A DNA stretch of 64,000 bases, from assembly GCA_016714535.1 (NCBI GenBank), contig JADKDR010000006.1, forward strand, positions 264,514 through 328,513, in the 5' to 3' direction. How positions within the stretch are numbered: the first letter of the stretch is position 1; each line of letters opens with the position of its first letter. The position numbers and the translations under genes were made by a program. This document shows, in pieces, positions 1,838-23,181 of the stretch. Below the pieces are notes generated by a model. That model was given only the letters and a program-made list of their open reading frames with translations, did no database searches and was not told the DNA's origin. The DNA comes from Bacteroidota bacterium. Lineage in GTDB: Bacteria > Bacteroidota > Bacteroidia > AKYH767-A > OLB10.

Positions 1838-4567
1838 TTATCGCACCATCAAATTCCCTTTCAATTTTAAGTCCCTGCTAGATGCCCCAATCATTATCCT
1901 AAATTCTCCCGGTTCAATTACGCGTTGTATTTTATCATCAATCATGCTTAACATTTCTGGCGTGATGTTAAATGATAGTTTCTTTGATTCGCCAGCTTTT
2001 AAGGGAACGCGCATAAATCCTTTTAATGCAATTACCGGTTGCGAAATAGATGACAGCATATCGCGTATGTATAGTTGCACCACTTCTTCCCCATCTTTGG
2101 TGCCTGTATTTTTTACAGTGAAAAATACTTGTGTGGTATCAACCGTAGTAGTTTCATTTTTGGAAAAATTTAAATCGCTGTATTCAAAACTTGTATAGCT
2201 CAATCCAAATCCAAAAGGAAATAAAGGCAATCCGCTCAGGTTATAGTAGTCATCGCCACGGCCGGTGGGCTTGTGAAAATAAGATAGCGGCAATTGCCCC
2301 TCATGTTGCGGAAATGTAATGGGCAAGCGCCCTGCCGGATTGTAATCGCCAAATAAGACATCGGCCAGTGCGTTTCCTGTTTGTTCACCATTGTACCAGT
2401 TCATCACAACTGCATCTACCTTATCAATCCAGCTGCTCATGGTGATAGCGCTACCACCACTTAGCACAACAACGATGGGCTTGCCATTGGCAGCAAGTTT
2501 AATAATCATCTCCTCCTGATTGCCTGGAAGTGATAACAAGGCTCTATCACGAAACTCGCCTTCTTCAATTCCTGCAACAACAATTACTGCATCGGCTTGC
2601 ATGGCTGCCTGTATTGCAGCGTTTATTTTTTCATCTTCATTCTCAGCAACACCATAATTCCAGATTAATTTAATATGGGCATTACCCACTGTTTCCTTAA
2701 ATTCAATTTTTATTTCATAAATTTTATCTTTGATAAATTCGTAATCTTCAAGCACTACACTATAAGACTGTTTTAACCATTTATCAATTACTAATTTCTT
2801 ATTGATATATAATTTAAAGCCATCATTCCCTTCTAATCCAATTTTTAGCTTAGCCGAAACGGGAACTTTTAAGTTGCCTGTCCATCGCACACTATAAAAA
2901 TCTAAAGGCAATATAGGATCGGGAGGATAGAGGGTCCAATGAAAATTTATTTGCCCATCCATTCTTTCAAACGCAGGTTTGCCTGCCAAATCAGGATTTG
3001 CAAAATACATTCCCCGCAAGCCGTTAGCTTTTCCTTCTGCTGTTAACCCTGAAAAATATTTAGTATCTATTACCGTATATGTTTCATAAATACGATTAAC
3101 TCCTTTCGAATACATAATCTTTGTATTGGCTCCAACCTTATTGCTAATTCCATCCAATGCAGAAACACCATGCATGCTCACAGCACTATATCCTCCCATT
3201 CTTAACTCTGCTGCATCACTGCCAATCACTGCAATAGTCCCAAGATTTTTTCTTAGTGGAAGGGCTTTATTTTCATTTTTAAGCAACACCATCGACTTAA
3301 GCGCTGCTGCTTTAGCAGCAGCAATATGCCTGGCATTGTGATAATACTTTATTACTTCGCTGGTGTCAATATAAGGTTGTTCAAACAACCCTAACTCAAA
3401 CTTAGCGCGCAACACTCTTCGCACTGCATTATCAATTATGTCCTGTTTGATGCTCCCATCCAAAAAAGGCGGACTAAACAGTTTGTAATGATCGAAGTGC
3501 GTTTGTAAAATAACATCCAACCCATTGGTAATGGCTTTTGCCGTGGCATCGGAATAATCACGTGCTGTATAATGCAATACATTGGCACCACCTGTAGCAC
3601 CGGCATCGCTAATCACAAAACCGGTAAAATTCCAATCGCCCTTGAGTTTTTTATTTAGCAACCAATTGTTGGCAGTGCATGGAGCACCATCAAGCGAATT
3701 GTAGGAGGTCATGACCGACCGTGCTTTTGCCTTTTCGAATGCAGATTGAAAAGGAACAAAATCAGTTTGCATTAAATACAATTCACTAAAGTGAATTGGA
3801 TAACTATCGCGGCCACCCTCGCCAACATTCGCAACAAAATGTTTTGGAGTAGTAATTATATTTTTTGTTTCAAATGCCTGAATAAAAGCATTGCCCATAA
3901 CGGCACTTAAAAATGGGTCTTCGCCATAGGTTTCTTCAACACGTCCCCAGCGAACATCGCTTGCTAAATTTATTACCGGACTTAGCACCTGTCTTATTCC
4001 ATACACTTTAGTCTCGGTTGAAATAGCATCAAATACTTGCCGTGCAACTGTTGTATCGAAGGTGCTTGCTATGGCTATGGATTGCGGAAAAACCGTTGCA
4101 TTATATTGTAATAGTCCATGTAATGCTTCCTCAAAAAAAATTGCCGGAATACCCAACCTTGATCGCTCTATCAAATAGCGCTGTATGGCATTACACTTTC
4201 TTGCGTAGGCCAATGGACTGCCAAGTGTATCGTGCGCCATCATTTGTTGTGTTGCCTCCCTATTGCCTAGATCTTCTCTAAACTGCAAACCGAAAATTCC
4301 GCTTTTATATTTTTCCTCCTCGCCTGATTTTATTTCATCATGAATCATAAAAAGTTGCCAGAACTTTTCTTCGGGTGTCATGCGTTGTAATAAATCTTCT
4401 ATCCGTAGCGCAGCGGGTTGATTTGGGTTCTTGTAAAGAGGAATACTTTGTGCGTTGCAAATTTTGACACCTCCAAGAGCTACCAAAAAAGTGAAAAATA
4501 GTGGGAGCGCAAGTATGGCGGGCGCGCTACGCGCGCCCGCACTATGTTTTATTTTATTTCTATTCAT
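1838..4567 (-). CDS. Secreted glycoside hydrolase family 3 beta-glucosidase (BglX-like) with an inserted PA14 domain
   Basis: Signal peptide follows MNRNKIKH. GH3 N-domain (SYNSLDGAPCTANNWLLNKKLKGDWNFTGFVISDAGAT), PA14-like insert (YSVRWTGNLK...GFKLYINKKLVID) and GH3 C-terminal GRLPITFP. The start was moved to the internal Met just ahead of the signal peptide. Confidence 0.9.
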   Translation of the reverse strand: MNRNKIKHSAGARSAPAILALPLFFTFLVALGGVKICNAQSIPLYKNPNQPAALRIEDLLQRMTPEEKFWQLFMIHDEIKSGEEEKYKSGIFGLQFREDLGNREATQQMMAHDTLGSPLAYARKCNAIQRYLIERSRLGIPAIFFEEALHGLLQYNATVFPQSIAIASTFDTTVARQVFDAISTETKVYGIRQVLSPVINLASDVRWGRVEETYGEDPFLSAVMGNAFIQAFETKNIITTPKHFVANVGEGGRDSYPIHFSELYLMQTDFVPFQSAFEKAKARSVMTSYNSLDGAPCTANNWLLNKKLKGDWNFTGFVISDAGATGGANVLHYTARDYSDATAKAITNGLDVILQTHFDHYKLFSPPFLDGSIKQDIIDNAVRRVLRAKFELGLFEQPYIDTSEVIKYYHNARHIAAAKAAALKSMVLLKNENKALPLRKNLGTIAVIGSDAAELRMGGYSAVSMHGVSALDGISNKVGANTKIMYSKGVNRIYETYTVIDTKYFSGLTAEGKANGLRGMYFANPDLAGKPAFERMDGQINFHWTLYPPDPILPLDFYSVRWTGNLKVPVSAKLKIGLEGNDGFKLYINKKLVIDKWLKQSYSVVLEDYEFIKDKIYEIKIEFKETVGNAHIKLIWNYGVAENEDEKINAAIQAAMQADAVIVVAGIEEGEFRDRALLSLPGNQEEMIIKLAANGKPIVVVLSGGSAITMSSWIDKVDAVVMNWYNGEQTGNALADVLFGDYNPAGRLPITFPQHEGQLPLSYFHKPTGRGDDYYNLSGLPLFPFGFGLSYTSFEYSDLNFSKNETTTVDTTQVFFTVKNTGTKDGEEVVQLYIRDMLSSISQPVIALKGFMRVPLKAGESKKLSFNITPEMLSMIDDKIQRVIEPGEFRIMIGASSRDLKLKGNLMVR

Positions 4568-4681: not shown

Positions 4682-6184
4682 TTACTTAACAACTAATTTA
4701 AAAACCAGTGCATCGCTAGGGTCAGTTGTTTTGGTATTGTCAATTTTTATTTTTCCATTAGAATTGGTCCACTTAACAGAACCGCTTTTCATGGCAGAAA
4801 TATTTTTTACCTGCCAACCATTATTACTAAACTCTATTGTGGGTGGCACTTTTTCATTTTCTTCTGCTAGGTAAATCGCATAGATGGTATTTCCCTTTCG
4901 CGTAAACACAAATTTTCCTTCCTGATATGGAAGTACCGGTTTTGTTCCATAAATACAATCCTGATTCACACGCATCCAATTACCTATTTGCTGCAAACGT
5001 ATATAGGCATCGTTATCCCAATCTCCTTGTGCCGAAGGCGCAATGTTGAGTAAGAGATTTCCTCCACGCGACACAATCTTACATAACAAATGAATAAGCT
5101 GATTGGTTGATTTGAATTTATCGCCAGGCACGTAACTCCACGAAGTGGCCATGGTCATGCAGGTCTCCCAGGGATACGACAAAACGGTATCAGGAACCTG
5201 TTGCTCTGGAGTAAGATAGTTTTGATAATATCCATACACTGAACGATCTACAATTAATATTCCCGGTTGTTGCTTGCGTGCCATAGCAGCCAACCGATGC
5301 ATGTCTATCTCATTGCGCCATGGTGTTTTTATCCACGATTCTTCTTCCTTGGTAATGGTACTGTCAGGGCGCACCCAGCCTCCATCAAGCCAAAGTAAAT
5401 CTACCTTACCGTAATTAGTGCACAATTCCTGCAACTGATTAAACGTATAATCATCAAAGTTTTTCCATCGGTCAGGATATTTGGCAGGATCGTAATTGCT
5501 CATGCGATTAGGGGTTGCAAAATAACTCCACCAGTAGTATTCACTATGCCAATCGGGCTTACTGAAATATGCACCTGTCATAAAATTATATTTTCTAAAT
5601 GCATTAAATATTTCAGCGGTCACATCTGCTTTGGGATTATTATGAAAAGGCGTTTTTTGAGAAGTAATTTTGTAATCGGTTTGTTTGGTATCGAACATAC
5701 AAAACCCATCGTGGTGCTTTGTGGTAAACACAACATACTTCATGCCTGCTTCAGAGGCAGCTTTAGCCCATTTATCGGGATTGAAATTAACAGGGTTAAA
5801 GGTGGTTTGCAATTTTTCGTATTCCTTTTTATAGGTGTTGTAATCATGTGCATAAGGCCCTCTGCGTTGACACCAGCCCTCGTCCTCGTTGCACAAACTC
5901 CAACTTTCAACAATACCCCACTGCGAATACGTCCCCCAGTGCATTAGCAAACCGAACTTACAGTCTTGCCAATAGGCAAGTTTCATTGCAACGAGCGAAT
6001 CTTGTGGGGGATAATATTTATGAATAGTATGCTGTGCATTTACTGTTTTAATAATTACACCGGATAACAGTGCAATAAACAGCACACACGTGATGACCCT
6101 TTTGCAGGAAATAAATAATTCTACCCGGCTTGCACTATTTCTAATTTTAACCACCTCAAACCGGGATAAACTTCTTCTTTGCAT
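4682..6184 (-). CDS. Glycoside hydrolase family 29 alpha-L-fucosidase
   Basis: MHWGTYSQWG...VVFTTKHHDGFCMFDTKQTDY is the conserved GH29 HHDGF region. An N-terminal signal/anchor is present. Confidence 0.85.
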   Translation of the reverse strand: MQRRSLSRFEVVKIRNSASRVELFISCKRVITCVLFIALLSGVIIKTVNAQHTIHKYYPPQDSLVAMKLAYWQDCKFGLLMHWGTYSQWGIVESWSLCNEDEGWCQRRGPYAHDYNTYKKEYEKLQTTFNPVNFNPDKWAKAASEAGMKYVVFTTKHHDGFCMFDTKQTDYKITSQKTPFHNNPKADVTAEIFNAFRKYNFMTGAYFSKPDWHSEYYWWSYFATPNRMSNYDPAKYPDRWKNFDDYTFNQLQELCTNYGKVDLLWLDGGWVRPDSTITKEEESWIKTPWRNEIDMHRLAAMARKQQPGILIVDRSVYGYYQNYLTPEQQVPDTVLSYPWETCMTMATSWSYVPGDKFKSTNQLIHLLCKIVSRGGNLLLNIAPSAQGDWDNDAYIRLQQIGNWMRVNQDCIYGTKPVLPYQEGKFVFTRKGNTIYAIYLAEENEKVPPTIEFSNNGWQVKNISAMKSGSVKWTNSNGKIKIDNTKTTDPSDALVFKLVVK

Positions 6185-6452
6185 CTTTATTACTTTTACT
6201 ATTCAGATTTTTTTTGGAATCCGTTATCCTAACATCCATCCCAATTTCTATTGAAAATAAAAATTGCAAATTGCAACTATAACTATATATGTTGACCAAT
6301 GCTATTCCTAACTCCGAAAGACTTTTATTTGGAACGAAAGTAAATTAATTTTCTAATAGCAATAATCCTTTTTTGTAGAATTTGAAAAACCACCATTCAC
6401 ACTAAATTGCCATATACCCTGACTTTGCCCGATGGCCCCAGCCAAAATTTTC

Positions 6453-7694
6453 TCAGTTCCTAATGACAATAAAATTAAACACCCATTGATAAATAAATAA
6501 AAGGGCAAGGTAAATTGTTCCAAGGGTTTCATAGGCTAATCCTGCTGCACAGGCAACTATGGTAAGCACTCCCATTAGCGCCATAATTCCAGCGTATATG
6601 GTAAGCGTTATTTTACCTTTTCGTATGGCCTTATTAAAAATAGAAGCGCATGGCAACATCATTGTAACAAAAAATATTCCGGCAATCAAAAACGTTTCTA
6701 TCTGCGAGGGAATATAAATGAGTAATGAAATTACTCCGGCAGCAAACAGAAGTGAAGTAAGCAATGCCCCTTTGCGTTCTTGATCACTTAAAATAAACTT
6801 ACCTTGAGGATGCCAGAATAGCAGCATGTTAAACAATGGTTGTATAATCCATGTGCTGAAAGCAAAGAGCGAGTACAAAATCAACAACGGATAAATAAAA
6901 ATAGCCATGGATGGATTTTTATCAGCCAAATTATTTAAATACCTCATCCCAAACCATAATCCAAAAATAAGGGCCGCTTGCATCCCCGGTTTCATATTAC
7001 CAATCCAAAACATGTACTTTAAAAAAACACGATACAGCCAATAGCGTGCTTTGAGAGCTTCTATCATGCCATGTTTGGCCCATTCATTGTTTGGATTAAA
7101 ACGCAGTGCTTCACTAAAGTGATGTATGGCCTTACGATGGTCTCCTCGCTCCAGAATACTCCAGGCTGTATTGGCATGGGTGTTACTGTTTTCGGGATCC
7201 TCATACAGGGCTTCGTTAATAGTGGCAAACGCTTCTTCCTTTTTATTTAACTTTATTAACGCAGTAGCACGGTGATTAAGCGCATCCACATTACCCGGGT
7301 CAATTGCCAGTGCCTCATCAGCGCTTTGCAATGCGAGTTCATAATCCTTTTGCAATAAAAATAATTGTGCACGCCAGGCAAAATATTCATCTCGATATGG
7401 TTCCATAGCGATGGCCTCATTTATTTTGACCATAGCATCTTTTGATTTTTCTTTAGCAAGAAAAATTCGCGAGTACATATAGAAAGTAAACGAATCAGAA
7501 GGGTCGAGCCTGATAGCCTCGTTAATAGACGCTTCGGCCTCAGTAATTTGATCAGCATTGAGGTGGCAAATAGCTAAGTACACATGTGCCTGCGCATCAT
7601 CAGGAAACGAACTTAGGTGTTGCCTAAATTCGGCAACAGCCTCCTTAAAACGATGTTGTTGTAGTAATAGTTTCCCGCGTTCCAAATGATACAT
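6453..7694 (-). CDS. TPR-repeat protein with a C-terminal polytopic membrane domain (unknown function)
   Basis: About 215 aa of TPR-like repeats, then roughly 6 predicted TM helices (FIYPLLILYSLFAFSTWIIQPLF..., GIMALMGVLTIVACAAGLAY...). It lies 4 bp downstream of the TPR-AAA gene. Confidence 0.6.
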   Translation of the reverse strand: MYHLERGKLLLQQHRFKEAVAEFRQHLSSFPDDAQAHVYLAICHLNADQITEAEASINEAIRLDPSDSFTFYMYSRIFLAKEKSKDAMVKINEAIAMEPYRDEYFAWRAQLFLLQKDYELALQSADEALAIDPGNVDALNHRATALIKLNKKEEAFATINEALYEDPENSNTHANTAWSILERGDHRKAIHHFSEALRFNPNNEWAKHGMIEALKARYWLYRVFLKYMFWIGNMKPGMQAALIFGLWFGMRYLNNLADKNPSMAIFIYPLLILYSLFAFSTWIIQPLFNMLLFWHPQGKFILSDQERKGALLTSLLFAAGVISLLIYIPSQIETFLIAGIFFVTMMLPCASIFNKAIRKGKITLTIYAGIMALMGVLTIVACAAGLAYETLGTIYLALLFIYQWVFNFIVIRN

Positions 7695-7697
7695 ACC

Positions 7698-9011
7698 TTA
7701 CTTTTTTATGCCGAGGTAAGTGAGTATATCGTTGTACAAACCGCTTTCATTAGCATATAATGCGTAGTTGCGCGCACTAACAAACCATTCTTTAGTGCTT
7801 GGCAATACTTGCTTCATTGCCTGCAATAGCGATGCAGTATTTAATGGCGAAGGCATTCCCTTCAACATAGACTCGCGCAGTTTCTCTTCGATGGCAATAT
7901 CGATAATTGCTTTAAGGTCGGCACCTGAATAGTCTTTAGTTTTTTTAGCCAATGCTTGATAGTCAATTTCAGAAACGGGTTTCCCTTTCAGCAACACTTT
8001 AAATATTTCTTCACGAGCTGTATCATCAGGAGGTGGAACAAATATGATGCGATCAAATCTGCCAGGCCTGCGAAAAGCGGCATCTAAATGCCAGGGCGCA
8101 TTGGTTGCCCCAAGTATTAAAATTCCATCGTTGCCATTTTGTGCCCCATCCAGCTCATTTAAAAACTGGTTTATCAAATGCCTTCCTGCCGAATGGCGCA
8201 TATCTGAGCGGCTGGCACCAAGGGCATCTACCTCGTCAAAAAAAAGTACACAGGGTTTTTGCTGACGAGCCATTTCAAATATAGCATGCAATCGTTGCTC
8301 ACTGGCACCTATGTACATATCCAACACATCGTTTATACCTACCGTTACAAAGTTGGCCTTCACCTGCCCCGCTGTAGCGCGGGCAAGCATGGTTTTGCCA
8401 CAACCCGGAGGTCCATATAACAATATACCTCCGCCTATGGCTTTGCCATAGGCCGCATACAACTCAGGGTGTTGCATGGGAAGTATGATTTTCATTTTGA
8501 TCTCCTCTTTCACTACATTCATTCCTCCTACATCATCAAAATTTATTTTGGGGCGCTCCATATTTGCAGGCAGTGCTTCAAATTCATCATCCATTACGCT
8601 CTCTCCGGATGTATTTTTTACTTTAAGCGCATCTTCCATCTCATCATCCTTAAGCGATGCATCAAGCATAAGTGCCTTTTTATACTCTTCGCTTGCCTTA
8701 AATAGTTGATTGTCTTTTAATAAAAGTTTTGCATGCAGCAGAAAGGTAGCAGGTGGTGGTGTGCCTCTTGCTATTAACTCATCCACTATTACATTCGCTA
8801 TCGAATATTTTTGCTGCATGTAACATGACTTTGCCAGCCCCAGCTTAATCTTATCATCGCTTTGTATTTCAAGGGCGCTTTTATAAATAGTTTCGGCCTC
8901 ATCGTACCGGGCGGTGTTCATCAATGCCTCGGCCAGCATCATGTGTAAGGGGATATTATCGGGCGAAACTTGTAGCGCTAGTTTCAAATTCTCAATAGCT
9001 TCGTTGTTCAT
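7698..9011 (-). CDS. TPR-repeat N-domain fused to a classic AAA+ ATPase (CDC48/FtsH-type) module
   Basis: Walker A ILLYGPPGCGKTMLA, Walker B VLFFDEVDALG, second region of homology and arginine finger GATNAPWHLDAAFRRPGRFDR. The N-terminal ~150 aa are TPR-like. Confidence 0.8.
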   Translation of the reverse strand: MNNEAIENLKLALQVSPDNIPLHMMLAEALMNTARYDEAETIYKSALEIQSDDKIKLGLAKSCYMQQKYSIANVIVDELIARGTPPPATFLLHAKLLLKDNQLFKASEEYKKALMLDASLKDDEMEDALKVKNTSGESVMDDEFEALPANMERPKINFDDVGGMNVVKEEIKMKIILPMQHPELYAAYGKAIGGGILLYGPPGCGKTMLARATAGQVKANFVTVGINDVLDMYIGASEQRLHAIFEMARQQKPCVLFFDEVDALGASRSDMRHSAGRHLINQFLNELDGAQNGNDGILILGATNAPWHLDAAFRRPGRFDRIIFVPPPDDTAREEIFKVLLKGKPVSEIDYQALAKKTKDYSGADLKAIIDIAIEEKLRESMLKGMPSPLNTASLLQAMKQVLPSTKEWFVSARNYALYANESGLYNDILTYLGIKK

Positions 9012-9208
9012 TGCGTATTATTTGATGGTGCAAGTTTAGGGAAAATATTCTTGATTTTAGTTACATAGTTCTTCCTTGTTTGAATTGGTTCGCAATTGGG
9101 AGGCGGAGCGTTCTCTGTAGCAATGTTCAATCCTGAACTTAAAACTTTTATGCAACTAAGGTAATAACGGTGATAATATATGTTCTGCCTTGTTCAGGCT
9201 TATGAACG

Positions 9209-9228
9209 AAACGTGTCAGTGACACGTT
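9209..9228. promoter_or_regulatory. Palindrome AACGTGTCA-g-TGACACGTT in the upstream region of the TPR-AAA operon
   Basis: Seen directly: 9-bp inverted arms around a single central base, ~200 bp upstream of the operon start at 9011. Candidate operator; function unknown. Confidence 0.3.
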
Positions 9229-9470
9229 GTTCTCGCTACGGTTGGTTAGAATTTCCATTATTGAAACTCGGCTTTTTATTTGGGATTAATTCTTATGGAA
9301 TAATAATGAGTAGCTGAAGCTACGTTAAGTGGGGGGCAGATATACGTTAACAACTTTATATTGCTCCATTTACAAATTGTAAAAAAACTTTTCTATATCT
9401 TTACAATTACAAATTTTAAAATCAAATAGCAATGGAAAATTTAAGTAACTTAGTAGTTGCTCCAATTGAG

Positions 9471-9494
9471 CAACAAGCAACAAGCAACAAGCAA
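9471..9494. repeat. Short tandem repeat (CAACAAG/CAAGCAA)n, about 3.5 units
   Basis: caacaagcaacaagcaacaagcaa seen directly in a ~1 kb non-coding AT-rich stretch. Confidence 0.6.
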
Positions 9495-10002
9495 CAAGCA
9501 AAAGGCATTTAGCACATTTAATTTTACTCCTATTAATAATGTTAATGCATAATCAAATGAGAGCACAGGCATGGACACAGTTGGGGCCGGGTGCCGGAGG
9601 GCAGGAAAGAGCAGTATATTTACATCAAAATTCAAAATAATATTCAAACCCGTTTTTTTAAATAATAAAGTAGTTGTCCAAAAATACAATCTCAAATCTA
9701 TTTTCAGAATAGGGTTGTTAATCTATTGAAACAAAAGATACAGATTCGGAAATCACTCTGTACTGGCCTTGTAATCCAATAATATAAGCAAGTTTGGCTT
9801 TTTGTCCAGTTCATTTGTGCCTCCAAAAAGAATGAATTTAAATTCCACAGAACGTCACCTATGCAATTGTTAGCAATGTGCAATAGATATATTTACACGG
9901 AACCAATTGTCAAAAAGCCAATAATTTTTTATTTCTAAAAAGTTGAATCGCCAATGAATTCCCGTACAAAAAAACCGGAGCAAAAATCTAACCCTACTTT
10001 TC

Positions 10003-11703
10003 TCATTCAACAATTACTTTTTTGGAAATAAGCTGAACGCCATTATAAATGACAATAAAATACATTCCTTTTGCAAGATTATCAAAATGAAGTTCGTTGC
10101 TATTTTTTAAATTTGAATTTTGCGTAGAAAAAATTAATACTCCCATCTCATTATATATGCTTATGTCCGCATTGAATTCGCTATCAAAATTGAATACAAC
10201 TTCAAAGTCGCCATCATTGGGATTGGGAATTATTTCTACTTGTTCATCAATATTATTTAATCCTATTCTTGCAGGAGGCATGGTTATAAATTTGCTTTTG
10301 CTACATCCCACCGAGTCAGTAACTATAACCTTATACGTTTTGCCGGGTAAAAGTCCGGTAGCCGTGGCAGTGGTTTGTGGCGGAATGGTATTCCATAAAA
10401 AAGTGTGAGGCAACACACCACCAGTAACTGTAGCTGAAGCTTCTGAGCTGTTAATAGCTGTTACTGTAACAACCATCAATGGGTTTTCGATTACCGTTGA
10501 AGTATTTACTTTAATACAACCAACTGCATCTGTAATAGTGCAAGTGTAAATGCCGGCACATAATCCCGATAAAGTTGAAGTCGTGGCTCCGGTATTCCAA
10601 AGTAATGTGTATGGTGGCACCCCACCACTTACGGTGAGTTTTATATTTGCATTGCATTTACCACCACAATTTATTTTAGATACTGTTTTTGCAATTGTTA
10701 CACTTGTTGCCGGTTGTGTTATCGTGTAGGTTGCAGCAGTAATGCATCCTTTACTGTCGGTAACGGTAACTAAAAAAGTGCCCGGGTATAGCCCTGTAAT
10801 AGTTGAAGTTTTTTTTCCGTTACTCCACAAATAAGTATAAGGAGGAGAGCCGCCTGAAACGTTTAGCATAATAGAACCATCGTGTGCCGAACGGCATTTT
10901 ATATTTTGTACTGTACCACTGATTGTAATTGGTACTGGAGGAGGCAAAAATATCGTCCTCATTTTCATTACTCCGAGAATATCTGTAACTATAACCGTAT
11001 ACGCACCAGCCGGCAACCCGGCAATCGTTTGTGTAGTGGCACCATTGCTCCATACAAAAGCATAGGGTGGTGTGCCGAAATTGGGCAATGCATTTATACT
11101 ACCATCAGGTGTGCCGGGACATGAAGGCTGATTGTATCCATACAAAACCGTTCCCGTATCAGTCAATTCTGTGTAACAATTTTCGTTGTGACCATACATA
11201 AGCAAATCAACATCGCAAGAGTCGTTGCCAAATAATCCTGTGGTGTCGAGGTTATAATGAAATGTGATATTGCTTTTCATATAAAACTGAAATGGAACCA
11301 AGGTGCCGGGAAAAGGCAAAGGAACAGTATTGAATACCCCCGTCTTTAGGGATTGAATAACCACACCATTTTTTACCAGTAAAAAAATATTTCCTTGTTT
11401 AGAAGTAAAGGGCGAAGGAAAATACACTTCGAATGATGCAGAGTCCGATTCGATTCGCACAGTGTCATTTCGCCAATAATTGTTGTATGTGATTGTATCA
11501 TCTTCTGTTTCGAAACGCATGAGAATTTTTAACAATACACCCATAGTATCCATGCCTGTATTGTAATCATGAACCTTAAATACAACGGGATCGCTTGTTC
11601 CTGCTTTTTGCCGAATGCTTTTTGCTTTGCCCTTCGATGTAGAACCAAAATCGGGAACCCATTCCAATGTTCCATTCATTAAGCTTACGATAATCACGCA
11701 CAT
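10003..11703 (-). CDS. T9SS-secreted surface protein (C-terminal part) with 3-4 SprB-type repeats and a type-A CTD
   Basis: Repeats ...GGSPPYTYLWSNGKKTSTITGLYPGTFLVTVTDSKGC..., and a CTD ending GMYFIVIYNGVQLISKKVIVE. It overlaps the upstream ORF in another frame, so it is probably one gene broken by a frameshift. Confidence 0.7.
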   Translation of the reverse strand: MCVIIVSLMNGTLEWVPDFGSTSKGKAKSIRQKAGTSDPVVFKVHDYNTGMDTMGVLLKILMRFETEDDTITYNNYWRNDTVRIESDSASFEVYFPSPFTSKQGNIFLLVKNGVVIQSLKTGVFNTVPLPFPGTLVPFQFYMKSNITFHYNLDTTGLFGNDSCDVDLLMYGHNENCYTELTDTGTVLYGYNQPSCPGTPDGSINALPNFGTPPYAFVWSNGATTQTIAGLPAGAYTVIVTDILGVMKMRTIFLPPPVPITISGTVQNIKCRSAHDGSIMLNVSGGSPPYTYLWSNGKKTSTITGLYPGTFLVTVTDSKGCITAATYTITQPATSVTIAKTVSKINCGGKCNANIKLTVSGGVPPYTLLWNTGATTSTLSGLCAGIYTCTITDAVGCIKVNTSTVIENPLMVVTVTAINSSEASATVTGGVLPHTFLWNTIPPQTTATATGLLPGKTYKVIVTDSVGCSKSKFITMPPARIGLNNIDEQVEIIPNPNDGDFEVVFNFDSEFNADISIYNEMGVLIFSTQNSNLKNSNELHFDNLAKGMYFIVIYNGVQLISKKVIVE

Positions 11704-12319
11704 CTACCCCACTCCAACTAAATGCTGATGTGGCAGTATTTAAATCGTTATTAATAGACTGAGTTAATCCAAAAGATTGTATCGTTCCTTTCACCGAAGG
11801 CTTTCCTAAAGAATCGACCTTGATACATGTGTAAGATTTTGCCGGAGAATTGCATGCCAGTGCGCATGCCGAATCGAGATACAAAGCGCCAATCAAAGGT
11901 ACTGTTCTTACCAAAGTATCCACTTTAGTTTTATTTCCATAAAAACAATTTAGTGGCAAATCTTTATCAATAGTATCGGTACAAAATGCTTCGAAAGTAG
12001 AGGGCTGCCCGGTTGGTTTTACTTTAAAGTTTTCGCATGCAATTATTGGCTCACGAACAAATGCATGATTATAACTTATAGCGAAAGTTTTGGCAGTGAT
12101 TGGCGAATCGGGCCAAAGAGTAAAACTGTGTTTTATTTGGTAAGTGAGGACCTTGTCACTTTGAGCAGGAGTGATTGTTTTTAAAAGTGTGAGCGGATTT
12201 ATGGCGCATTGGCTTTTTAACAACAATGGCATCAAAACAAAAAACAAACTTACATAGCTAAATATTTTTGAAGGTTTCATTTTGTTATTTTTTATGGAGA
12301 TTAATAATTCAAATGGCAT
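11576..12319 (-). CDS. N-terminal, signal-peptide-bearing part of the same cargo gene, frameshifted relative to 10003..11703
   Basis: MKPSKIFSYVSLFFVLMPLLLKS signal. The ORF ends in a non-native basic tail (…SKKHSAKSRNKRSRCI) that overlaps the start of the downstream ORF in a different frame. Confidence 0.55.
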   Translation of the reverse strand: MPFELLISIKNNKMKPSKIFSYVSLFFVLMPLLLKSQCAINPLTLLKTITPAQSDKVLTYQIKHSFTLWPDSPITAKTFAISYNHAFVREPIIACENFKVKPTGQPSTFEAFCTDTIDKDLPLNCFYGNKTKVDTLVRTVPLIGALYLDSACALACNSPAKSYTCIKVDSLGKPSVKGTIQSFGLTQSINNDLNTATSAFSWSGVDVRDYRKLNEWNIGMGSRFWFYIEGQSKKHSAKSRNKRSRCI

Positions 12320-12466
12320 CTCAAATATAAAAATTTTTTTGATTGTGGTGATGAATTTTAAAAATAAATCAAATATTATTTCGAAGTAAAAAACAATCCC
12401 GCGAGATTAAATTCCCGCGGGATGTTCCGGCATCATCGATTCCGTATTTAGTGTGACACAATCCCC

Positions 12467-15400
12467 TTAATTATGTACACTTAATTTCATTCTGTGTGTT
12501 TGCCCTTGCAACTGTAATTCTAATGTATAAATACCGTTTGAAAGGTGCATTACATTTAGTACAATATCAGTGCCATTATTAAGTAAATTTTTCTGACTAA
12601 GCACTTTATTGCCCAATGCATCAAACAAATTAATATGAACACTTTCATTTGCAAAACCATCGATATGTAGTATAACAAAATTCTTGGCCGGATTTGGATA
12701 TAAGGTCAAACCTATTTCGGTTGATGAAAAGTCTGTATTACCCAACTTCATCTGCGGCATTATGAATGTCTGCATTTGCATGCAACCTGAATTATCCATT
12801 ACCTGTAACTGTAAAATTTGCCCGGGGAACAAACCTGTAGCCAAAGGTCCGGTTTGTGGTGGCATTGTATTCCAGAATATTTGATAAGGAGGCAAACCAC
12901 CAAGCACATTTGCAAATGCCTGACTTGGAGGCATTGGCTGCACATTAATCTGCATTGGTGGCGGACTGCTAATGTTGATTGTACTATTGGCCAAACATCC
13001 CTTAGCATCTGTTACAACTACATTATAAGTTCCTGCTGTGAGGTTTGTTACTGCTGCCGTTGTCATGCCATTGGTCCATAAAAATGTATATGGTTTTGTT
13101 CCTCCTGTTCCAACTATTGATGCACTACCGTTACTACCTCCAAAGCAAGTTACACTTGTCAATGTTGGAACTATTTGCAGTGGAAGAGGTTGTTTTACCT
13201 GATAACTGCTAACTACGCTGCATCCATTAGCATCGCTAACTGTAGCAGTATACGTACCAGCTTTTAGACCAGTTCTTGCTTGATTAGTATTGCCATTATT
13301 CCATTTGTAGAGGTAAGGAAATGTTCCACCCGATGGAATAAGCGTAATGCTGCCGCTAAAATCATTATTGCAATTTAATTTTTTAACATTGGCTGTTACT
13401 GATAACAGAGAAGGCTCAGTTAAATTGACAGTTCCAGTCCATGAAAAACCACTTGCATTGGTTACATTTACCGTAAGGTTGCCGGCAGAAAGATTATTGA
13501 TAATAGCAGTAGTAGCACCGTTGCTCCATATGTAATTTAATGGTAGCATATTGTCTTTTACATTGTCCATTACCATAGCGAACCCATTGAGACTTCCACT
13601 GCACCAAGGTCCGGCCGATACTAATGTCAGTTCGGGATTTGGAATTGCAACCGATGGGCTCACAGGCACTTCAAATACTTTCGTCATGCATCCAGGTGAA
13701 TCCGATACTATAACTGTATACGTTCCGGAAGAAAGATTAGATATATCTTCGGTAGTACTTCCATTCGACCATAAGAACGATGGAAGAAGCATGTCGCCTG
13801 TTAAAGTAAAATCTATACTACCATTGAATTCAGTAAGCGAACTTGCGGGAGTAATGGTTGCAGTACCATCGTAAGAAATAGTAGTGCCGGGTACAGAAAC
13901 ATTCACTGTAGTATAAGGAAATGTATCGGTAGAATTGTATGGCAATAATGCATTGATATGAAAACTAAACTGTACAGGTGCTCCCGGTAAAATTGGAGAA
14001 TAGAAATTTAACGTGCCCGTTGGGAAATCAAAATAGGATGGCAATTTGCTCGATGCCGCATCTACAATAATTCCAGGGTGGGGCGAATTAAATACTAACT
14101 GAGAAATAGGTGAGCACGACTCGTTAATGGCAACCAAACTTCCACTACGGCTGGTCAAACCAAAAGCACTGTTATCATTATTTAAATAAAATTTCATAGT
14201 ACCACCTGTGCATGCCAACTGATAAATAGTATCATCTGAATCGTCAGTAATTTCTATAGTATAACCATCTATCTTTTTACTGCAATAAACTGTAACCACC
14301 ATTTTATTGCCGGGTAAAATACCTCCACCATTGGGTGCGTATACATGTACAGTATCGTTCTTTTTGCCGGGAGGTTTTGTATCCCATTTTACACCGTTCA
14401 CTAAAACCGAATCAATACTTTCTTTCGCAATGATTTCCAAATCACAAATAGTATCTCTTGTGTCATTTTTTAAAACAGTTGACGATTTGCTGCTGCTGAA
14501 TGTACTGCCCGGAGTAGAACCGCTAAACTTTATCTGACGGGTTGCTTTATTTCCCGGATTAATATTTTGTATGCCACAACTAATGTCGGCATTCAGGCTA
14601 TCGGTAGGAGTGTATACATACGTAGTACAAGCTTTATTAAATTTTACAGAAATGGAATAGGGTGCTCCATCGGCAATACACGGAAAAAATACATGCACCT
14701 CATTTTTTTGAGTTGGGCGTGCTGTAATTTTTTTGCCATCGGTTCCATATATGCTGTCCACTTTCTTATCATTTACCCAAACTTCATCTATTGTTACTCC
14801 TGTTGGCGCTTTAATGCGCATATCGCATACATCTGTGCCTGTTGCATTACTATTGGACAAACGTGGAAAACTACTTGGTTCAAAAGTAGGCGATTGTTGC
14901 CCTCCGGTAGTATTTGTTTTGCGAGCCCGCTTTCCCTGTTCTACTGCACCGTTATTCGGCAGACTCCTGTTTGCCATAACATCTGCGTTAAGGCTATCTG
15001 TAGGTGTTATTTTGTAGGTTGTTATTTCGCTTTGTGCTGCTACTGAAACTTTGAAACTATCACCGTCCTTTATGCACTTGAAATATACATGCACTACCTT
15101 TGAATTTGCCGAAGTACCGTTGGGAACTTTAGTGCTACCAACTTTTATACTATCTACTTTTTTATTATTTACAAACACAGAGTCGATTTTTTGAGGACTC
15201 TCTATTCGCAAATCGCAAATGTCGGTGCCTGTAAGATTGGTATAGCCGAGTGAAGGGAATTTACTGGAAGCAAAAGTTGGTGACTGTGAGCCACCAGGCA
15301 CTGTGGTTTTTTCTATTTTTTTATTTACTGTTGTTGCATTGGGATTTACTGCATCATTCACCACCAAATCGGAATGCATGCTATCCGTAGGAATTAAATA

Positions 15401-15871
15401 AAGCAATGATATATTTCCTTCAAACTCTGCTTGAATGGTAATTTGTTTTGTATTGTTTACGCAAGGGTTAAATACTACATGTTGTTTGCCATTTGCTTTT
15501 GCTGTCAAAGCAACAGCTACGCCATTTACTGTTACCGATTTTGCCTTCACAGCACCGGTCCACAATAACCAAAAATCGCAAAGGTCTTCACCTACCATAT
15601 TTACGGTTTGCAGTTTTACTTTTGCCAAAGGACCCGAATCAACGAGCAACTTCCCTCCTTTGATAATTTTGTCGTCATCGGCTTTTGCGCAATGTAGTGT
15701 GGTAAAAAACAAAACAAATACAATTGCGATTTTTTTGAAAACGTGAACTAAATGTTGTTTACGTAAATGGCTTAAAAAATGAAATAAATTGTAGAAGCCT
15801 TGTTCGGTAACACTGGTGATGCTTGCTTTAACCAGCGATTGTTGTGAAACAATGTGTGTAGAATTTTTCAT
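12467..15871 (-). CDS. Large T9SS cargo protein: four tandem ~125-aa repeats of an unrecognised module, then 4-5 SprB-type repeats and a type-A CTD
   Basis: Repeated blocks such as TDICDLRIESPQKIDSVFVNNKKVDSI...YKITPTDSLNADV and TDVCDMRIKAPTGVTIDEVWVNDKKVDSI...YVYTPTDSLNADI. C-terminal SprB repeats (GGTKPYTFLWTNGMTTAAVTNLTAGTYNVVVTDAKGC). CTD ends GIYTLELQLQGQTHRMKLSVHN. The N-terminal ~45 aa before the signal-like segment are unusual, so the true start is uncertain. Confidence 0.75.
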   Translation of the reverse strand: MKNSTHIVSQQSLVKASITSVTEQGFYNLFHFLSHLRKQHLVHVFKKIAIVFVLFFTTLHCAKADDDKIIKGGKLLVDSGPLAKVKLQTVNMVGEDLCDFWLLWTGAVKAKSVTVNGVAVALTAKANGKQHVVFNPCVNNTKQITIQAEFEGNISLLYLIPTDSMHSDLVVNDAVNPNATTVNKKIEKTTVPGGSQSPTFASSKFPSLGYTNLTGTDICDLRIESPQKIDSVFVNNKKVDSIKVGSTKVPNGTSANSKVVHVYFKCIKDGDSFKVSVAAQSEITTYKITPTDSLNADVMANRSLPNNGAVEQGKRARKTNTTGGQQSPTFEPSSFPRLSNSNATGTDVCDMRIKAPTGVTIDEVWVNDKKVDSIYGTDGKKITARPTQKNEVHVFFPCIADGAPYSISVKFNKACTTYVYTPTDSLNADISCGIQNINPGNKATRQIKFSGSTPGSTFSSSKSSTVLKNDTRDTICDLEIIAKESIDSVLVNGVKWDTKPPGKKNDTVHVYAPNGGGILPGNKMVVTVYCSKKIDGYTIEITDDSDDTIYQLACTGGTMKFYLNNDNSAFGLTSRSGSLVAINESCSPISQLVFNSPHPGIIVDAASSKLPSYFDFPTGTLNFYSPILPGAPVQFSFHINALLPYNSTDTFPYTTVNVSVPGTTISYDGTATITPASSLTEFNGSIDFTLTGDMLLPSFLWSNGSTTEDISNLSSGTYTVIVSDSPGCMTKVFEVPVSPSVAIPNPELTLVSAGPWCSGSLNGFAMVMDNVKDNMLPLNYIWSNGATTAIINNLSAGNLTVNVTNASGFSWTGTVNLTEPSLLSVTANVKKLNCNNDFSGSITLIPSGGTFPYLYKWNNGNTNQARTGLKAGTYTATVSDANGCSVVSSYQVKQPLPLQIVPTLTSVTCFGGSNGSASIVGTGGTKPYTFLWTNGMTTAAVTNLTAGTYNVVVTDAKGCLANSTINISSPPPMQINVQPMPPSQAFANVLGGLPPYQIFWNTMPPQTGPLATGLFPGQILQLQVMDNSGCMQMQTFIMPQMKLGNTDFSSTEIGLTLYPNPAKNFVILHIDGFANESVHINLFDALGNKVLSQKNLLNNGTDIVLNVMHLSNGIYTLELQLQGQTHRMKLSVHN

Positions 15872-15937
15872 CTTTTGTTTGATTTTAAAATTTACGTTTA
15901 GTACTTTTTATTGATATTTGAATCAAACATACAGTGT

Positions 15938-15966
15938 GATATAACCCTTGGAAAGGGGTTTTTTGA
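15938..15966 (+). terminator. Plus-strand hairpin plus T-run with no plus-strand gene upstream
   Basis: aacccttggaaaggggttttttg, an imperfect stem followed by T6. It sits in the divergent promoter region of the 12467..15871 gene. Possible small-RNA terminator or attenuator. Confidence 0.25.
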
Positions 15967-16154
15967 ATTTGACGGTTCTAAGTTTGAATTTGAAGGGTTT
16001 GAGGTTGATGATAAAAACCAAAGGCAAAGTAATACTGGCTTCGCAGCATTTATATGCTAATAAAAAATAAAATATGCATGTACTAAATTCAAAGGGAAAG
16101 CTTTGGATTATGCAGAATAAAATGTAATACTATTATTAAGGCAAGCTAATAAAA

Positions 16155-16901
16155 TCAGACCTCACCAAGCTTTTGTAAAAATAAATCCTTACGTGTTCGC
16201 GATACATCAAGTGTGGCACCATTCGACATTATCACTTGCCCGCCTTCGCCACGAATATATTTTTTTACTTTGTGTAAGTTTATCAGGTAACTATTGTGAA
16301 TACGAAAAAATGCATAATTGCTTAACTCCTTTTCATAATCCTTTATGGACTTTGATGTAACAATTTCAGTTTTATTATCGAAGTAAAAAGTAGTGTAAAC
16401 GTTTTCCGATTTACAGTAAACTATTGCATCAATTTCAAAAAATTCTATTCCACTTTTATCACTAAGGCCAATTTTTTTTTTCGTTGTGCCCTCATTTATA
16501 TTGTGCAATAAATTTTCGATTTGCTTTGTGGATTGGTTTTGTAAATTTTTTTGCCGATACCGTTCTATCACATCGCATAAGTCATCATGGCCATAAGGTT
16601 TCAATAAAAAATCGAAAGCCGAAAAACGTATAGCATCTATGGCATAAGAATCGAAAGAGGTTGTAAACACTACTTCGTAATTTCTGTTTACTACAGCTTT
16701 CAACAAATCGAAGCCTGTGTGTGGTGGCATTTGTACATCTAAAAACAATATATCAAAATCCGAACTATCCACCAGTTTAATACCTTCAACTACGGATGCT
16801 GATTCGCCAATAATTTCTACACCTGGCAAATTTACTGCAATGGCATCTCGCAAGAAATCGCGGTGTTGTTTTTCGTCATCTATCACAATACATTTTATCA
16901 T
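16155..16901 (-). CDS. LytTR-family two-component response regulator
   Basis: Receiver domain (IVIDDE...DILFLDVQMP) plus C-terminal LytTR DNA-binding domain. The start overlaps the upstream kinase gene by 4 bp. Confidence 0.85.
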   Translation of the reverse strand: MIKCIVIDDEKQHRDFLRDAIAVNLPGVEIIGESASVVEGIKLVDSSDFDILFLDVQMPPHTGFDLLKAVVNRNYEVVFTTSFDSYAIDAIRFSAFDFLLKPYGHDDLCDVIERYRQKNLQNQSTKQIENLLHNINEGTTKKKIGLSDKSGIEFFEIDAIVYCKSENVYTTFYFDNKTEIVTSKSIKDYEKELSNYAFFRIHNSYLINLHKVKKYIRGEGGQVIMSNGATLDVSRTRKDLFLQKLGEV

Positions 16902-18751
16902 GCAGCTAAATTAGTAAAAGGAAGCAACAATGTAACTTTGGTGCCTGTCACATTTCCATTAACATCAACAATATTTTCGGCTGTATAATCCGATTTCGAA
17001 TTACTTAGTGCCTGCATACAATCAAGCCGTTCTTTCGTGAGGGCTATACCATAGGACTTTCGTGCCGATATATTTTCCTGAGTTTTGCGACCACCACCAT
17101 CATCAGTTATTTCGATACGTATTTTATTCAACATGCGCGAAATATGTATTGCAATTGTTCCCGAACCACCTTGCGATTTTATGCCATGAACAATTGCATT
17201 CTCGACTATGGGCTGCAACAATAAAGGTGGAAGAAATGTTTCTGTTGTATCAATTTCATGGTCGACCGTTACATTAAAAATCAAGGTGCCTTGGAGCCTG
17301 TTTTTTTCCAGTGCAACATAATCATTTAAGGTTTCCAGTTCATCTTCGAGTGTTACTTGCTTACTCATGCTGTGGTCAAGTACCTTTCGTATTAGTTTGG
17401 CAAAGCGCAATAAGGTTACACTGGCATTTTGCAAATCCTTTTTTGCAATTAACGTTTGTATCGATTGCATGCAGTTGAAAATAAAATGTGGATTCATCTG
17501 CGCATTGATAGCACGCATATTCAGGTCAGCCAATTGATGTTTCATTTGTGCTTCGCGTTTGCGCCTGTAAAAAATAAATGCAAATACTGCAAACGAGAAA
17601 ATAAGGATGGCCGAATATATAATTGTATTGCGCAATGTTTTTTGCTTTTGCAATTCCTTGTTTGCAAGTTCATTCTTTTGTTGTTGTTGTAACTTTAAAA
17701 TGGCTTCGCGCTTTTCGAAATCATATTGCAGTTGCTTCTTCATCAATTGATTGCGGGTGTCATCGTTGCGAATGCTATCGGTAAGATTTTTAAACAATAC
17801 CTGCATATGAAAAGCTTTTTCGAAACGTCCTGTTGCCGAGTATAATCTGCTTAGCCAATCGGTGGCACCCAACATGCCCGAAGTATATTTCAAAGCAACC
17901 GATTGCTGCCATGCATCGGTAAAATTTTTTTCCGCCTCGCTCCACTTTTTCTGCTTCATCTGTATGTTACCAAAATTTATTTTCGATAAACATAAACCTA
18001 TATCATCTCCAATACTTTTTTGTATATCGTAACTGGCTCTATAATATTCAATGGCTTTTTCATTATCATTCAACTTATCGTACACACCACCAATGTTGCT
18101 TAGCACAAGGCCCTGATTTTCGATGTCTTCGGTTTGCTTGTGCAATGCTAAACTTTGTTCCAAATAATTTAATGCTTCCTTATGAAGGCCATGATTGTTG
18201 TAAATAGTACCAAGGTTATTCAATGCAACCGCCATTCCTGTTTTGTCTTTTAATTCTGTCATTATCGAAAGACATTGTTTAATATTTACAAGAGCCTGTT
18301 GCCAATCTCCCTGTTCGTCATATACTGTTCCTATATTTCCGAGTGTATTTGCAATGCCATATTTATCGTTGCTCGCCTCGTAATATTTCAATCCTTCGAG
18401 GTAGAAATTTAATGCCTGTGGCATGTCGCCATTTTGCTGGTGCACAAAACCTATATTGTTACAATATGCTGCATAATGAATGGTGCCAATGCGATTTATC
18501 GCGCCATTGTTTTGTTTCATCATCCGTTGTGCTATCATTCCCATTTCATCGTTAAGCGGTTGCCATATAGTATCCTCTTCAATTAAATCAATCAAAGTAT
18601 TAATCAACACAACCCGCTGCGAATCAATGTTTGTAGATGGCAGCAATGCAAGCAATGAATCTTTATTTGTTTGTGAAAAAGATATGGAACTAAAAAAGAA
18701 TAAAATCAAAAAGCACAGTAAATATTTATTTTTCATTTTTAGCATTTTCAC
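16898..18751 (-). CDS. Sensor histidine kinase (LytS/His_kinase PF06580 type) with a periplasmic TPR-repeat sensor region
   Basis: Signal peptide, ~350 aa of TPR repeats, one TM, then MNPHFIFNCMQSIQ (the His_kinase H-box) and an HATPase domain. Confidence 0.8.
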   Translation of the reverse strand: MKMLKMKNKYLLCFLILFFFSSISFSQTNKDSLLALLPSTNIDSQRVVLINTLIDLIEEDTIWQPLNDEMGMIAQRMMKQNNGAINRIGTIHYAAYCNNIGFVHQQNGDMPQALNFYLEGLKYYEASNDKYGIANTLGNIGTVYDEQGDWQQALVNIKQCLSIMTELKDKTGMAVALNNLGTIYNNHGLHKEALNYLEQSLALHKQTEDIENQGLVLSNIGGVYDKLNDNEKAIEYYRASYDIQKSIGDDIGLCLSKINFGNIQMKQKKWSEAEKNFTDAWQQSVALKYTSGMLGATDWLSRLYSATGRFEKAFHMQVLFKNLTDSIRNDDTRNQLMKKQLQYDFEKREAILKLQQQQKNELANKELQKQKTLRNTIIYSAILIFSFAVFAFIFYRRKREAQMKHQLADLNMRAINAQMNPHFIFNCMQSIQTLIAKKDLQNASVTLLRFAKLIRKVLDHSMSKQVTLEDELETLNDYVALEKNRLQGTLIFNVTVDHEIDTTETFLPPLLLQPIVENAIVHGIKSQGGSGTIAIHISRMLNKIRIEITDDGGGRKTQENISARKSYGIALTKERLDCMQALSNSKSDYTAENIVDVNGNVTGTKVTLLLPFTNLAA

Positions 18752-19024
18752 AATATCATTTAAAAAAGATAGATGGTTATTCTATTGTCAAAGATTAATT
18801 TGGCTATACAAATTTAATAAAAAAGGTTAATCGCCACCATGCTTTATAAGGAAGCTTTCAACAATTTCCTTTGCCAATCTTTTCGCATTGGCGTTTACAA
18901 ATACTCAGAACCTATAAATTGAAACCAGCATTGAAAAAGTCAAACAGGAAAGAAGCAAAGAAATATTTCAACAAATATTTTAATTTCGCGCTATAAATAA
19001 TTCTAAAATTTATTTTAATCAAAC

Positions 19025-21850: not shown

Positions 21851-21857
21851 AGCACTT

Positions 21858-21883
21858 GGGGAGTAATATAAAAGTTACTCCCC
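21858..21883 (+). terminator. Rho-independent terminator after the 19025..21850 gene
   Basis: GGGGAGTAA-tataaaag-TTACTCCCC, a perfect 9-bp stem, followed by attttattt. Confidence 0.7.
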
Positions 21884-21895
21884 ATTTTATTTACT

Positions 21896-23161: not shown

Positions 23162-23181
23162 CGCGTAGCTTTAGCTACGCG
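23162..23181 (+). terminator. Palindromic hairpin CGCGTAGCT-tt-AGCTACGCG followed by a T-rich tract
   Basis: Seen directly, immediately after the stop of ORF 22872..23168. Confidence 0.5.

Follow-up and report, generated by a model that had tools for sequence, protein, structure and literature searches.

What is the function of two closely spaced genes when one encodes an AAA+ ATPase with tetratricopeptide repeats (TPRs) and the other a polytopic membrane protein with TPRs of its own, and do the two form a unit? The question is raised by a 64,000-nucleotide (nt) window, our term for the whole stretch of DNA that was analyzed, on contig JADKDR010000006.1 of a Bacteroidota bacterium. Gene A (7698..9011, minus strand) encodes a TPR-AAA+ ATPase of 437 residues, and gene B (6453..7694, minus strand) encodes a TPR inner-membrane protein of 413 residues with six transmembrane (TM) helices; both ranges are those of the open reading frame (ORF) list and take in the stop codon. 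The A-B pair is real, intact, and strongly co-conserved, and it is a further member of a dyad that is already on record. This instance has no unexpected feature beyond those of the family and is a good candidate for experiments. The general model that we favor, with a probability of roughly 0.55, is that A and B form a membrane-proximal AAA+ protein-remodeling machine in which B would act as anchor, adaptor, or client.

Conservation of the gene pair

A preliminary description of this DNA had placed two minus-strand genes at these coordinates with a gap of 4 bp. The genes are as described, but the stop codon of A and the ATG of B are separated by a spacer of 3 nt (TAA-GGT-ATG). A genome scan with one genome per species returned 80 loci, 79 of which have a clear orthologue of A (45–70% identity). 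Of these 79 loci, 75 have a B-like ORF downstream of A (75 of the 77 that are informative); two of the four exceptions are contigs that end 127–368 nt past A, and the spacer between the genes is 2–20 nt in nearly all loci. The same dyad was found in a Verrucomicrobiales metagenome-assembled genome (MAG), with a 4-nt overlap of the genes, and in an Isosphaeraceae (Planctomycetota) MAG, where they abut. Over 69 loci, the pairwise identities of A and B correlate with r = 0.92, at mean identities of 61% for A and 41% for B. Co-conservation across genomes, a check that the preliminary description had proposed, is borne out by the informative loci and by the Planctomycetes-Verrucomicrobia-Chlamydiae (PVC) phyla, and the occurrence of the pair in Verrucomicrobiota and Planctomycetota is at odds with its view of the module as specific to Bacteroidota. 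We conclude that A and B are an autonomous two-gene operon that is inherited as a unit and probably also translated as one.

Of 57 nearest neighbors of A, 39 come from the same Bacteroidota class, which points to inheritance that is predominantly vertical, with some lateral exchange. Two contigs assigned to a Leptospira sp. MAG (L021) and a Williamsia sp. MAG (L024) carry A and B genes that are 71–86% identical to the Flavobacteriia and Chitinophagia versions; these contigs are probably mis-binned Bacteroidota DNA and do not reflect spread to those phyla. In two Lewinella loci (L036, 4731–7225, and L041, 7319–9831) the ATPase gene is followed by two tandem, diverged TPR-6TM paralogues, which account for the apparent 1.26-kb gap in both. 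Clusters 2–5 and 7 of the flanking ORFs were considered as conserved neighbors and rejected, as they are antisense shadow ORFs inside A and B. Proteins identical to A (P0001) and B (P0121) are annotated "AAA family ATPase [Bacteroidota bacterium]" and "tetratricopeptide repeat protein," respectively.

The dyad has been noted before, in one or two sentences and with no experiments, by Ravi et al. (2024, mSystems, PMC11237479; preprint 10.1101/2020.09.24.301986). In its main text and in Supplementary Text 2.2, that paper reports a "VPS4-like AAA+-ATPase" that passed from Archaea to Bacteria, with the ATPase gene followed by that of a larger TPR + 6TM protein in Bacteroidetes, Verrucomicrobia, and Planctomycetes (example Opitutus terrae Oter_1429, ACB74714.1). 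Its authors classed the ATPase as "MIT+Vps4-AAA-ATPase," regarded snf7 as displaced by the TPR+6TM gene, and inferred a "membrane-proximal complex." The gene order, architecture, and phyla found here agree with this dyad, and because architecture and phyla match, A-B very probably belongs to the same family. The pair can therefore not be regarded as undescribed; the preliminary description had considered that it might be an uncharacterized system. A search seeded with a Verrucomicrobiales orthologue returned many Verrucomicrobiota, with none named Opitutus among the best 120 matches.

Domain structure of the ATPase

The N-terminal domain of A (residues 1–118; 8658..9011, minus strand) is made up of approximately three TPR repeats and a cap, as judged from matches to Pfam TPR_19, TPR_8, TPR_2, and TPR_11, of which TPR_19 and TPR_8 cover residues 3–60. 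It contains an invariant SPxNxPL motif, and in an alignment of 34 homologues Leu-9, Ala-12, Pro-17, Asn-19, Pro-21, and Leu-22 are invariant. A variable acidic linker of approximately 30 residues follows (residues 119–150; 8562..8657, minus strand); it is the least conserved segment of A, with 29% mean pairwise identity over the 69 loci, and is rich in gaps in the 34-homologue alignment. The preliminary description was correct in fusing a TPR domain to a complete AAA+ module, but the approximately 150 residues that it assigned to TPRs divide into approximately 120 residues of TPR domain and this linker. The TPRs of A align in register with the first repeats of B (26% identity, pairwise E = 8e-6), a resemblance that reads as ordinary TPR similarity.

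The large AAA subdomain (residues 151–326; 8034..8561, minus strand), has a mean identity of 72% across loci. Residues 196–326 match the AAA domain PF00004 with E = 1.2e-41 and 142.7 bits (cut-off 21.2), and the lid matches AAA_lid_3 (PF17862) with 32.1 bits (cut-off 27.2); with both scores above the gathering thresholds, A is a member of the classical AAA clade. On the minus strand of gene A are encoded the Walker A motif GPPGCGKT (residues 200–207; 8391–8414), pore loop 1 MYIG, which is M-Y/W-I-G in the family (residues 232–235; 8307–8318), the Walker B motif FFDEVD (residues 257–262; 8226–8249), sensor 1 (ATN) with Asn-304, and the second region of homology (SRH) with the arginine fingers, ATNAPWHLDAAFRRPGRFDR, which includes RRPGRFDR (residues 302–321; 8049–8108), as well as the GxSGAD motif of the lid, in which SGAD occupies residues 362–365. 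Because the set of motifs is complete, and because Walker A, Walker B, the pore loop, sensor 1, the SRH, and SGAD are invariant or nearly so among the 34 homologues, A has all of the elements required of a substrate-threading AAA+ protein.

The lid (residues 327–405) and the C-terminal tail (residues 406–437) are encoded by 7701..8033 (minus strand), the tail having the consensus STKEWF..ARNYALYANESGLYDDIL.YL.IKK. The segment that comprises the end of the lid and the tail (residues 386–437) is 66% conserved over the 69 loci, close to the 72% of the ATPase core, and Thr-406, Glu-408, Trp-409, Phe-410, Asn-415, Ala-417, Asn-421, Gly-424, Tyr-426, and Leu-430 are invariant in the 34 homologues. 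In the same alignment the C terminus reads ...YL(G/K)IKK and has no penultimate tyrosine of the HbYX type. The Pfam matches of A comprise TPR and NTPase-type families only, with no protease domain; no TM predictor was run on A. Taken together, A is predicted to be a soluble, single-ring classical AAA+ ATPase with intact catalytic and threading elements.

Relationship of the ATPase to characterized families

The preliminary description held that assignment of the ATPase to a well-characterized family would speak against its proposal, and no curated NCBIfam model reaches its cut-off for A. The highest scores were obtained with CDC48 (TIGR01243; 219 bits, cut-off 802), PAN (NF003069; 218 bits, cut-off 500), and FtsH (TIGR01241; 206 bits, cut-off 600), followed by CdvC (NF041006; 183 bits over residues 130–413, cut-off 650), Mpa (140 bits, cut-off 505), IteA (NF042959; 123 bits, cut-off 510), and EccA (TIGR03922; 35 bits, cut-off 467). 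No SpoVK or CbbX model is among the 25 listed of the 31 NCBIfam families that match A. The best PDB matches of residues 149–390 are the D2 rings of Cdc48/p97 (E of approximately 1e-101 to 1e-104), followed by NVL, AFG2, and Rix7. The lid and tail alone match Cdc48/p97 D2, AFG2, VAT, and FtsH; Vps4, spastin, and katanin are all missing from the best 60 of 71 lid matches (E ≤ 0.01). The N-terminal domain matches multi-repeat TPR proteins in the PDB, no MIT structure being among them, and neither MIT (PF04212) nor Vps4_C is matched in Pfam at E ≤ 0.01. In PADLOC, A matches IetA (129 bits) and TRIP13 at sub-family level only.

A is thus best described from its sequence as a single-ring AAA+ protein of the classical clade that belongs to none of the characterized families. 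The MIT and Vps4-like labels could not be reproduced for this member, and its matches do not support a specific affinity to Vps4. The preliminary statement that the pair has no recognizable link to FtsH is overstated, as the AAA module of A is homologous to those of FtsH, PAN, and Cdc48 (E of approximately 1e-61 to 1e-65); relative to FtsH, A lacks only the protease and TM parts.

Structure, topology, and conservation of the membrane protein

The preliminary description of B as approximately 215 residues of TPRs followed by about six TM helices agrees well with our AlphaFold2 model, which was computed with 45 homologues and has a predicted local distance difference test (pLDDT) score of 92.5. 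The cytoplasmic TPR solenoid (residues 1–215; 7050..7694, minus strand) consists of six repeats (12 helices) and a capping helix, with the modeled helices spanning residues 2–215, and it is matched over residues 4–215 by Pfam TPR_2 (E = 1.6e-24) and related families. The membrane domain (6459..7040, minus strand) begins with an amphipathic juxtamembrane helix (residues 219–232) and continues with TM helices at residues 236–259, 261–294, 304–330, 333–352, 361–383, and 389–412; modeled alone, the membrane half has a pLDDT of 92.6. The C-terminal half of B has no family match in Pfam or NCBIfam, and the membrane domain has no match in a PDB sequence search. In an exhaustive HMMER search with the membrane half, in which counts refer to representatives of 50%-identity clusters, 1,314 representatives were found at E ≤ 1e-3 and 745 at E ≤ 1e-10. 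Nearly all of these proteins are approximately 415 residues long with the domain at residues 210–415, and this near constancy of length and domain position indicates a rigid architecture.

The N-terminal sequence of B shows no signal-peptide-like hydrophobic stretch on direct reading (no predictor was run). Among the 45 homologues, the mean number of lysine and arginine residues is 3.3 before TM1, 3.1 in the TM2-TM3 loop, 2.7 in the TM4-TM5 loop, and 1.8 at the C terminus, versus 0.6, 0.3, and 0.4 in the other three loops, which are 5–10 residues long. This positive-inside pattern places both termini of B in the cytoplasm, together with the TPR solenoid and the conserved polar motifs, and B virtually lacks a periplasmic domain. 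The most conserved part of B is formed by the last TPRs (residues 161–216; 59% mean identity), compared with 39% for residues 1–160, and contains the block DPENS.THAN.GW...E.GDH.KAL..F.EAL..(D/N)P. A further conserved motif, STW..PLFN..LRLN..GR.ALS, follows TM2 and comprises, in the cytoplasmic TM2-TM3 region (6780–6851, minus strand), Trp-282, Pro-286, Asn-289, Gly-298, and Leu-302.

The upstream region

Gene A is separated from the next upstream ORF by an ORF-poor, AT-rich spacer of 991 bp (9012–10002). In the closest relative found (L081; A 89% identical), the downstream synteny is shared with the window (B, a fucosidase, GH3, a SpoU methylase, and MutS), and A lies 155 nt downstream of a gene that differs from its upstream neighbor in the window. 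The genes upstream of A in L081 encode a 277-residue TPR protein, a rhomboid protein, a 156-residue protein, a DnaJ/BatD protein, a THUMP methyltransferase, and RadA, and they map to 23465–29171 of the window. In BLASTN, the alignment over the 5' end of A stops at 9045. Because homology to L081 breaks off at this point and resumes at 23465, the 14.4 kb between (9046–23464) constitute a lineage-specific segment, which was inserted between the gene for the 277-residue TPR protein (23470–24303) and A or else was deleted in L081.

This segment encodes SprB-repeat proteins with C-terminal sorting domains of the type IX secretion system (T9SS) (10003–11703, 12467–15871, and 19025–21850), a TPR-histidine kinase (16898–18751), a LytTR response regulator (16155–16901), and two ORFs with no Pfam match. 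A Pfam scan of seven ORFs of at least 120 residues detected neither an integrase nor any other mobility domain. The minus-strand ORFs 11576–12319 (247 residues, with a signal-peptide-like N terminus and no Pfam match) and 10003–11703 (566 residues, with SprB repeats and a Por_Secre_tail) overlap by 128 nt and may be the two parts of a single T9SS cargo gene interrupted by a frameshift or by faulty assembly. The secretion-related role raised for the pair in the preliminary description has no supporting evidence, nor does any evidence connect the pair with the T9SS; the neighboring SprB/T9SS cargo genes are part of the inserted segment. The co-directional genes for the DnaJ/BatD, 156-residue, rhomboid, and 277-residue TPR proteins lie at 23470–26484 in the window and at 4831–7845 in L081, where A-B follows this run immediately, an arrangement not seen again in the 80 clustered loci. 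The rhomboid, DnaJ, and 277-residue TPR genes were rejected as parts of the module, as they flank A-B in this lineage only.

Homology to L081 upstream of A is limited to 34 nt (9012–9045). Within it, 20–27 nt upstream of the ATG, lies a candidate -7 box of the Bacteroidota type, TAAACTTG (9031..9038, minus strand), with seven of eight matches to TAnnTTTG, and L081 has TACAATTG at the equivalent place. Similar boxes are present in some other loci, with no universal motif. Since the only upstream stretch conserved in L081 holds this box, a promoter probably lies directly upstream of the A ATG, and since both genes are intact despite a separation of 14.4 kb from their former neighbors, it can be argued that A-B has its own promoter and is a self-contained transcription unit. 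A scan for sigma-70 promoters and terminators gave counts not above those in shuffled sequence, a scan that is uninformative for Bacteroidota. The spacer contains no significant repeats and no credible ORF. A tandem heptanucleotide, TGCTTGT, is present in approximately 4.5 copies on its minus strand (window positions approximately 9468–9502).

Discussion

Our favored model of a membrane-proximal remodeling machine can be drawn in terms of the conserved surfaces of the two proteins. The juxtamembrane platform of B, comprising the last TPRs, the amphipathic helix, and the TM2-TM3 loop, would recruit a hexamer of A to the cytoplasmic face of the inner membrane, through the TPR domain of A, its conserved C-terminal tail, or both. 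Threading by A at the expense of ATP would then unfold, extract, or disassemble a membrane-associated client; this could be B itself or another protein that the less conserved N-terminal TPRs of B present. The membrane-tethered unfoldase of the preliminary description is still the most economical reading, with both TPR domains cytoplasmic by the positive-inside pattern and the pore loops of A intact. A more specific form of the model is a machine for the extraction or remodeling of membrane proteins, in which a Cdc48/Vps4-type unfoldase docks on a dedicated receptor with six TM helices and a novel fold. Such a machine would be common among environmental Bacteroidota and the PVC phyla and functionally analogous to eukaryotic Msp1, Pex1/6, or ESCRT-Vps4; this form is put forward tentatively, as one possibility.

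Several observations weigh against the model. The membrane domain of B has no recognizable relative, so that an anchor, a channel, a sensor, or a client are all possible. A Saprospiraceae MAG (L012) and a Cytophagaceae MAG (L035) have A without an adjacent B. All-against-all clustering of ORFs yielded no other flanking family in more than 10 of the 80 loci, antisense shadows of A and B apart, and so gave no functional clue from the neighborhood. Finally, full-text literature searches found no other paper on the dyad and no experiment on any family member, and PMC6514570 does not bear on it.

In one competing explanation, A would be a laterally acquired archaeal ATPase of the Vps4/CdvC type, and B would replace Snf7/ESCRT-III and be recycled by A in an ESCRT-like remodeling of the membrane. 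The NxPW motif carried by A occurs in Vps4 and katanin, and MIT domains are TPR-like three-helix bundles, which can be counted in favor of this view. The match of the CdvC model to residues 130–413 and the published classification of the dyad, with snf7 displaced by the TPR+6TM gene (PMC11237479), point in the same direction. The CDC48, PAN, and FtsH models, however, outscore CdvC on A both overall and per residue, the N-terminal domain matches multi-repeat TPR proteins and no MIT structure, and the lid matches Cdc48 D2, AFG2, and FtsH, Vps4 being absent from the best 60 lid matches. The pore loop M-[WY]-I-G and the RRPGRFDR motif are likewise nearer to Cdc48 D2, PAN, and FtsH than to the meiotic clade, and nothing suggests that B polymerizes. 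We consider polymer disassembly of this kind unlikely. A still less probable alternative is an anti-phage or conflict cassette, with A as the sensor of infection or a regulated ATPase and B as a membrane-disrupting effector of abortive infection. A compact two-gene cassette in variable genomic contexts would fit such a role, as would the weak PADLOC matches to IetA and TRIP13, the cross-class nearest neighbors that suggest some lateral transfer within Bacteroidota, and the variable island that adjoins the pair in this window. Yet the IteA score is far below its cut-off and the IetS protease partner is absent, no B homologue was found in 72,556 plasmid or 50,697 phage records, and the conservation of A and its predominantly same-class nearest neighbors are atypical of fast-evolving defense genes. 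The flanks of the 80 loci likewise contain no recurrent family, defense or other, although single flanking genes were not screened against defense libraries.

The remaining alternative concerns regulation. A perfect 9-1-9 palindrome, AACGTGTCAGTGACACGTT, lies at 9210–9228, approximately 200 nt upstream of the A ATG in the AT-rich spacer, and is unique in the window even with 3 mismatches allowed, so that it could be taken as an operator and the spacer as the regulatory leader of A-B. The approximately 1-kb non-coding stretch with its palindrome exists as the preliminary description had it, but the palindrome and almost all of the stretch belong to the 14.4-kb segment that is absent from L081, and nothing supports reading the stretch as the leader of the operon. 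The expectation that the palindrome would recur upstream of homologous operons also failed: it is absent from L081 and from all of 87 related loci, and 76 upstream regions contain neither this palindrome nor any shared palindrome, k-mer, or motif. Perfect palindromes with arms of at least 9 bp and a loop of up to 10 nt gave 35 hits in the window, at approximately 22 distinct sites (for example 4518–4540, 21857–21884, 47837–47860, and 53500–53521), against a mean of 4.25 in shuffles; they are approximately 8 times more common than in composition-matched shuffled sequence, and many are probably terminators. Among them the palindrome upstream of A does not stand out. An Rfam scan of 5900–10300 found no RNA family at E ≤ 1, and thus no known riboswitch or leader in the spacer, and the upstream homology that is retained is the short stretch with the -7-like box. 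As a conserved feature of the operon the operator reading is refuted, and any such role is very improbable; the palindrome and the 1-kb spacer lie outside the A-B unit and are local features of a variable island.

The machine favored here would be of interest beyond this locus, as few bacterial AAA+ unfoldases of the classical clade lack a protease domain and those that do are poorly understood, and A is paired with a dedicated membrane partner whose TM bundle has no relative in Pfam or the PDB. The family is large, with at least 745 representatives of 50%-identity clusters for the membrane domain of B, and members of two superphyla of environmental bacteria carry the pair. Should A-B extract or remodel membrane proteins, it would be the bacterial equivalent of Cdc48, Msp1, or Vps4 functions in eukaryotes or archaea, and would bear on the proposed transfer of such ATPases from archaea to bacteria.

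Comparison with known systems

The pair resembles the recorded dyad (PMC11237479) in the succession of an AAA+ gene and a TPR + 6TM gene, in the overlapping phyla, and in the membrane-proximal inference, and differs from its published description in that the N-terminal domain scores as TPR instead of MIT and the AAA module is not specifically Vps4-like. Vps4/CdvC and ESCRT-III (Snf7/CdvB) likewise combine a single-ring classical AAA+ ATPase that has a helical-repeat N-terminal domain and works at the cytoplasmic membrane face with a dedicated operon partner; A, however, has no MIT domain, beta-domain, or Vps4_C, its CdvC score is below the cut-off, and its partner is a TPR-6TM protein and not Snf7. 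The best sequence matches of the AAA core, pore loop, and lid of A are with the D2 ring of Cdc48/p97/VAT, yet A has one AAA ring instead of two and TPRs in place of the double-psi-barrel N-terminal domain, and stays below the TIGR01243 cut-off. PAN and Mpa are distinguished by a coiled-coil/OB N-terminal domain, and A has neither a PAN score near the cut-off (218 versus 500 bits) nor the penultimate tyrosine of HbYX. A also falls below the cut-off for IetA/IteA, and its partner is a TPR-6TM protein and not the IetS serine protease. EccA of type VII secretion resembles A in the fusion of an N-terminal TPR domain to one AAA+ module, but the AAA module of EccA is CbbX-like (A scores 35 versus 467 bits) and A-B has no type VII secretion context.

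The pair can also be compared with machines that work on membranes. Msp1/ATAD1, and Pex1/6 with Pex15/26, are membrane extraction machines recruited by membrane adaptors, and they would share with A-B the principle of bringing an unfoldase to the membrane by means of a dedicated membrane protein, although B is unrelated to any known membrane adaptor. FtsH with LapB/YciM is a classical AAA protein combined with an inner-membrane protein whose cytoplasmic TPRs direct the ATPase to its clients. Although A has neither the M41 protease nor the TM helices of FtsH, and B ends in six TM helices and lacks a rubredoxin domain, the two systems have the same overall arrangement, in which a classical AAA module is paired with an inner-membrane protein that carries cytoplasmic TPRs.

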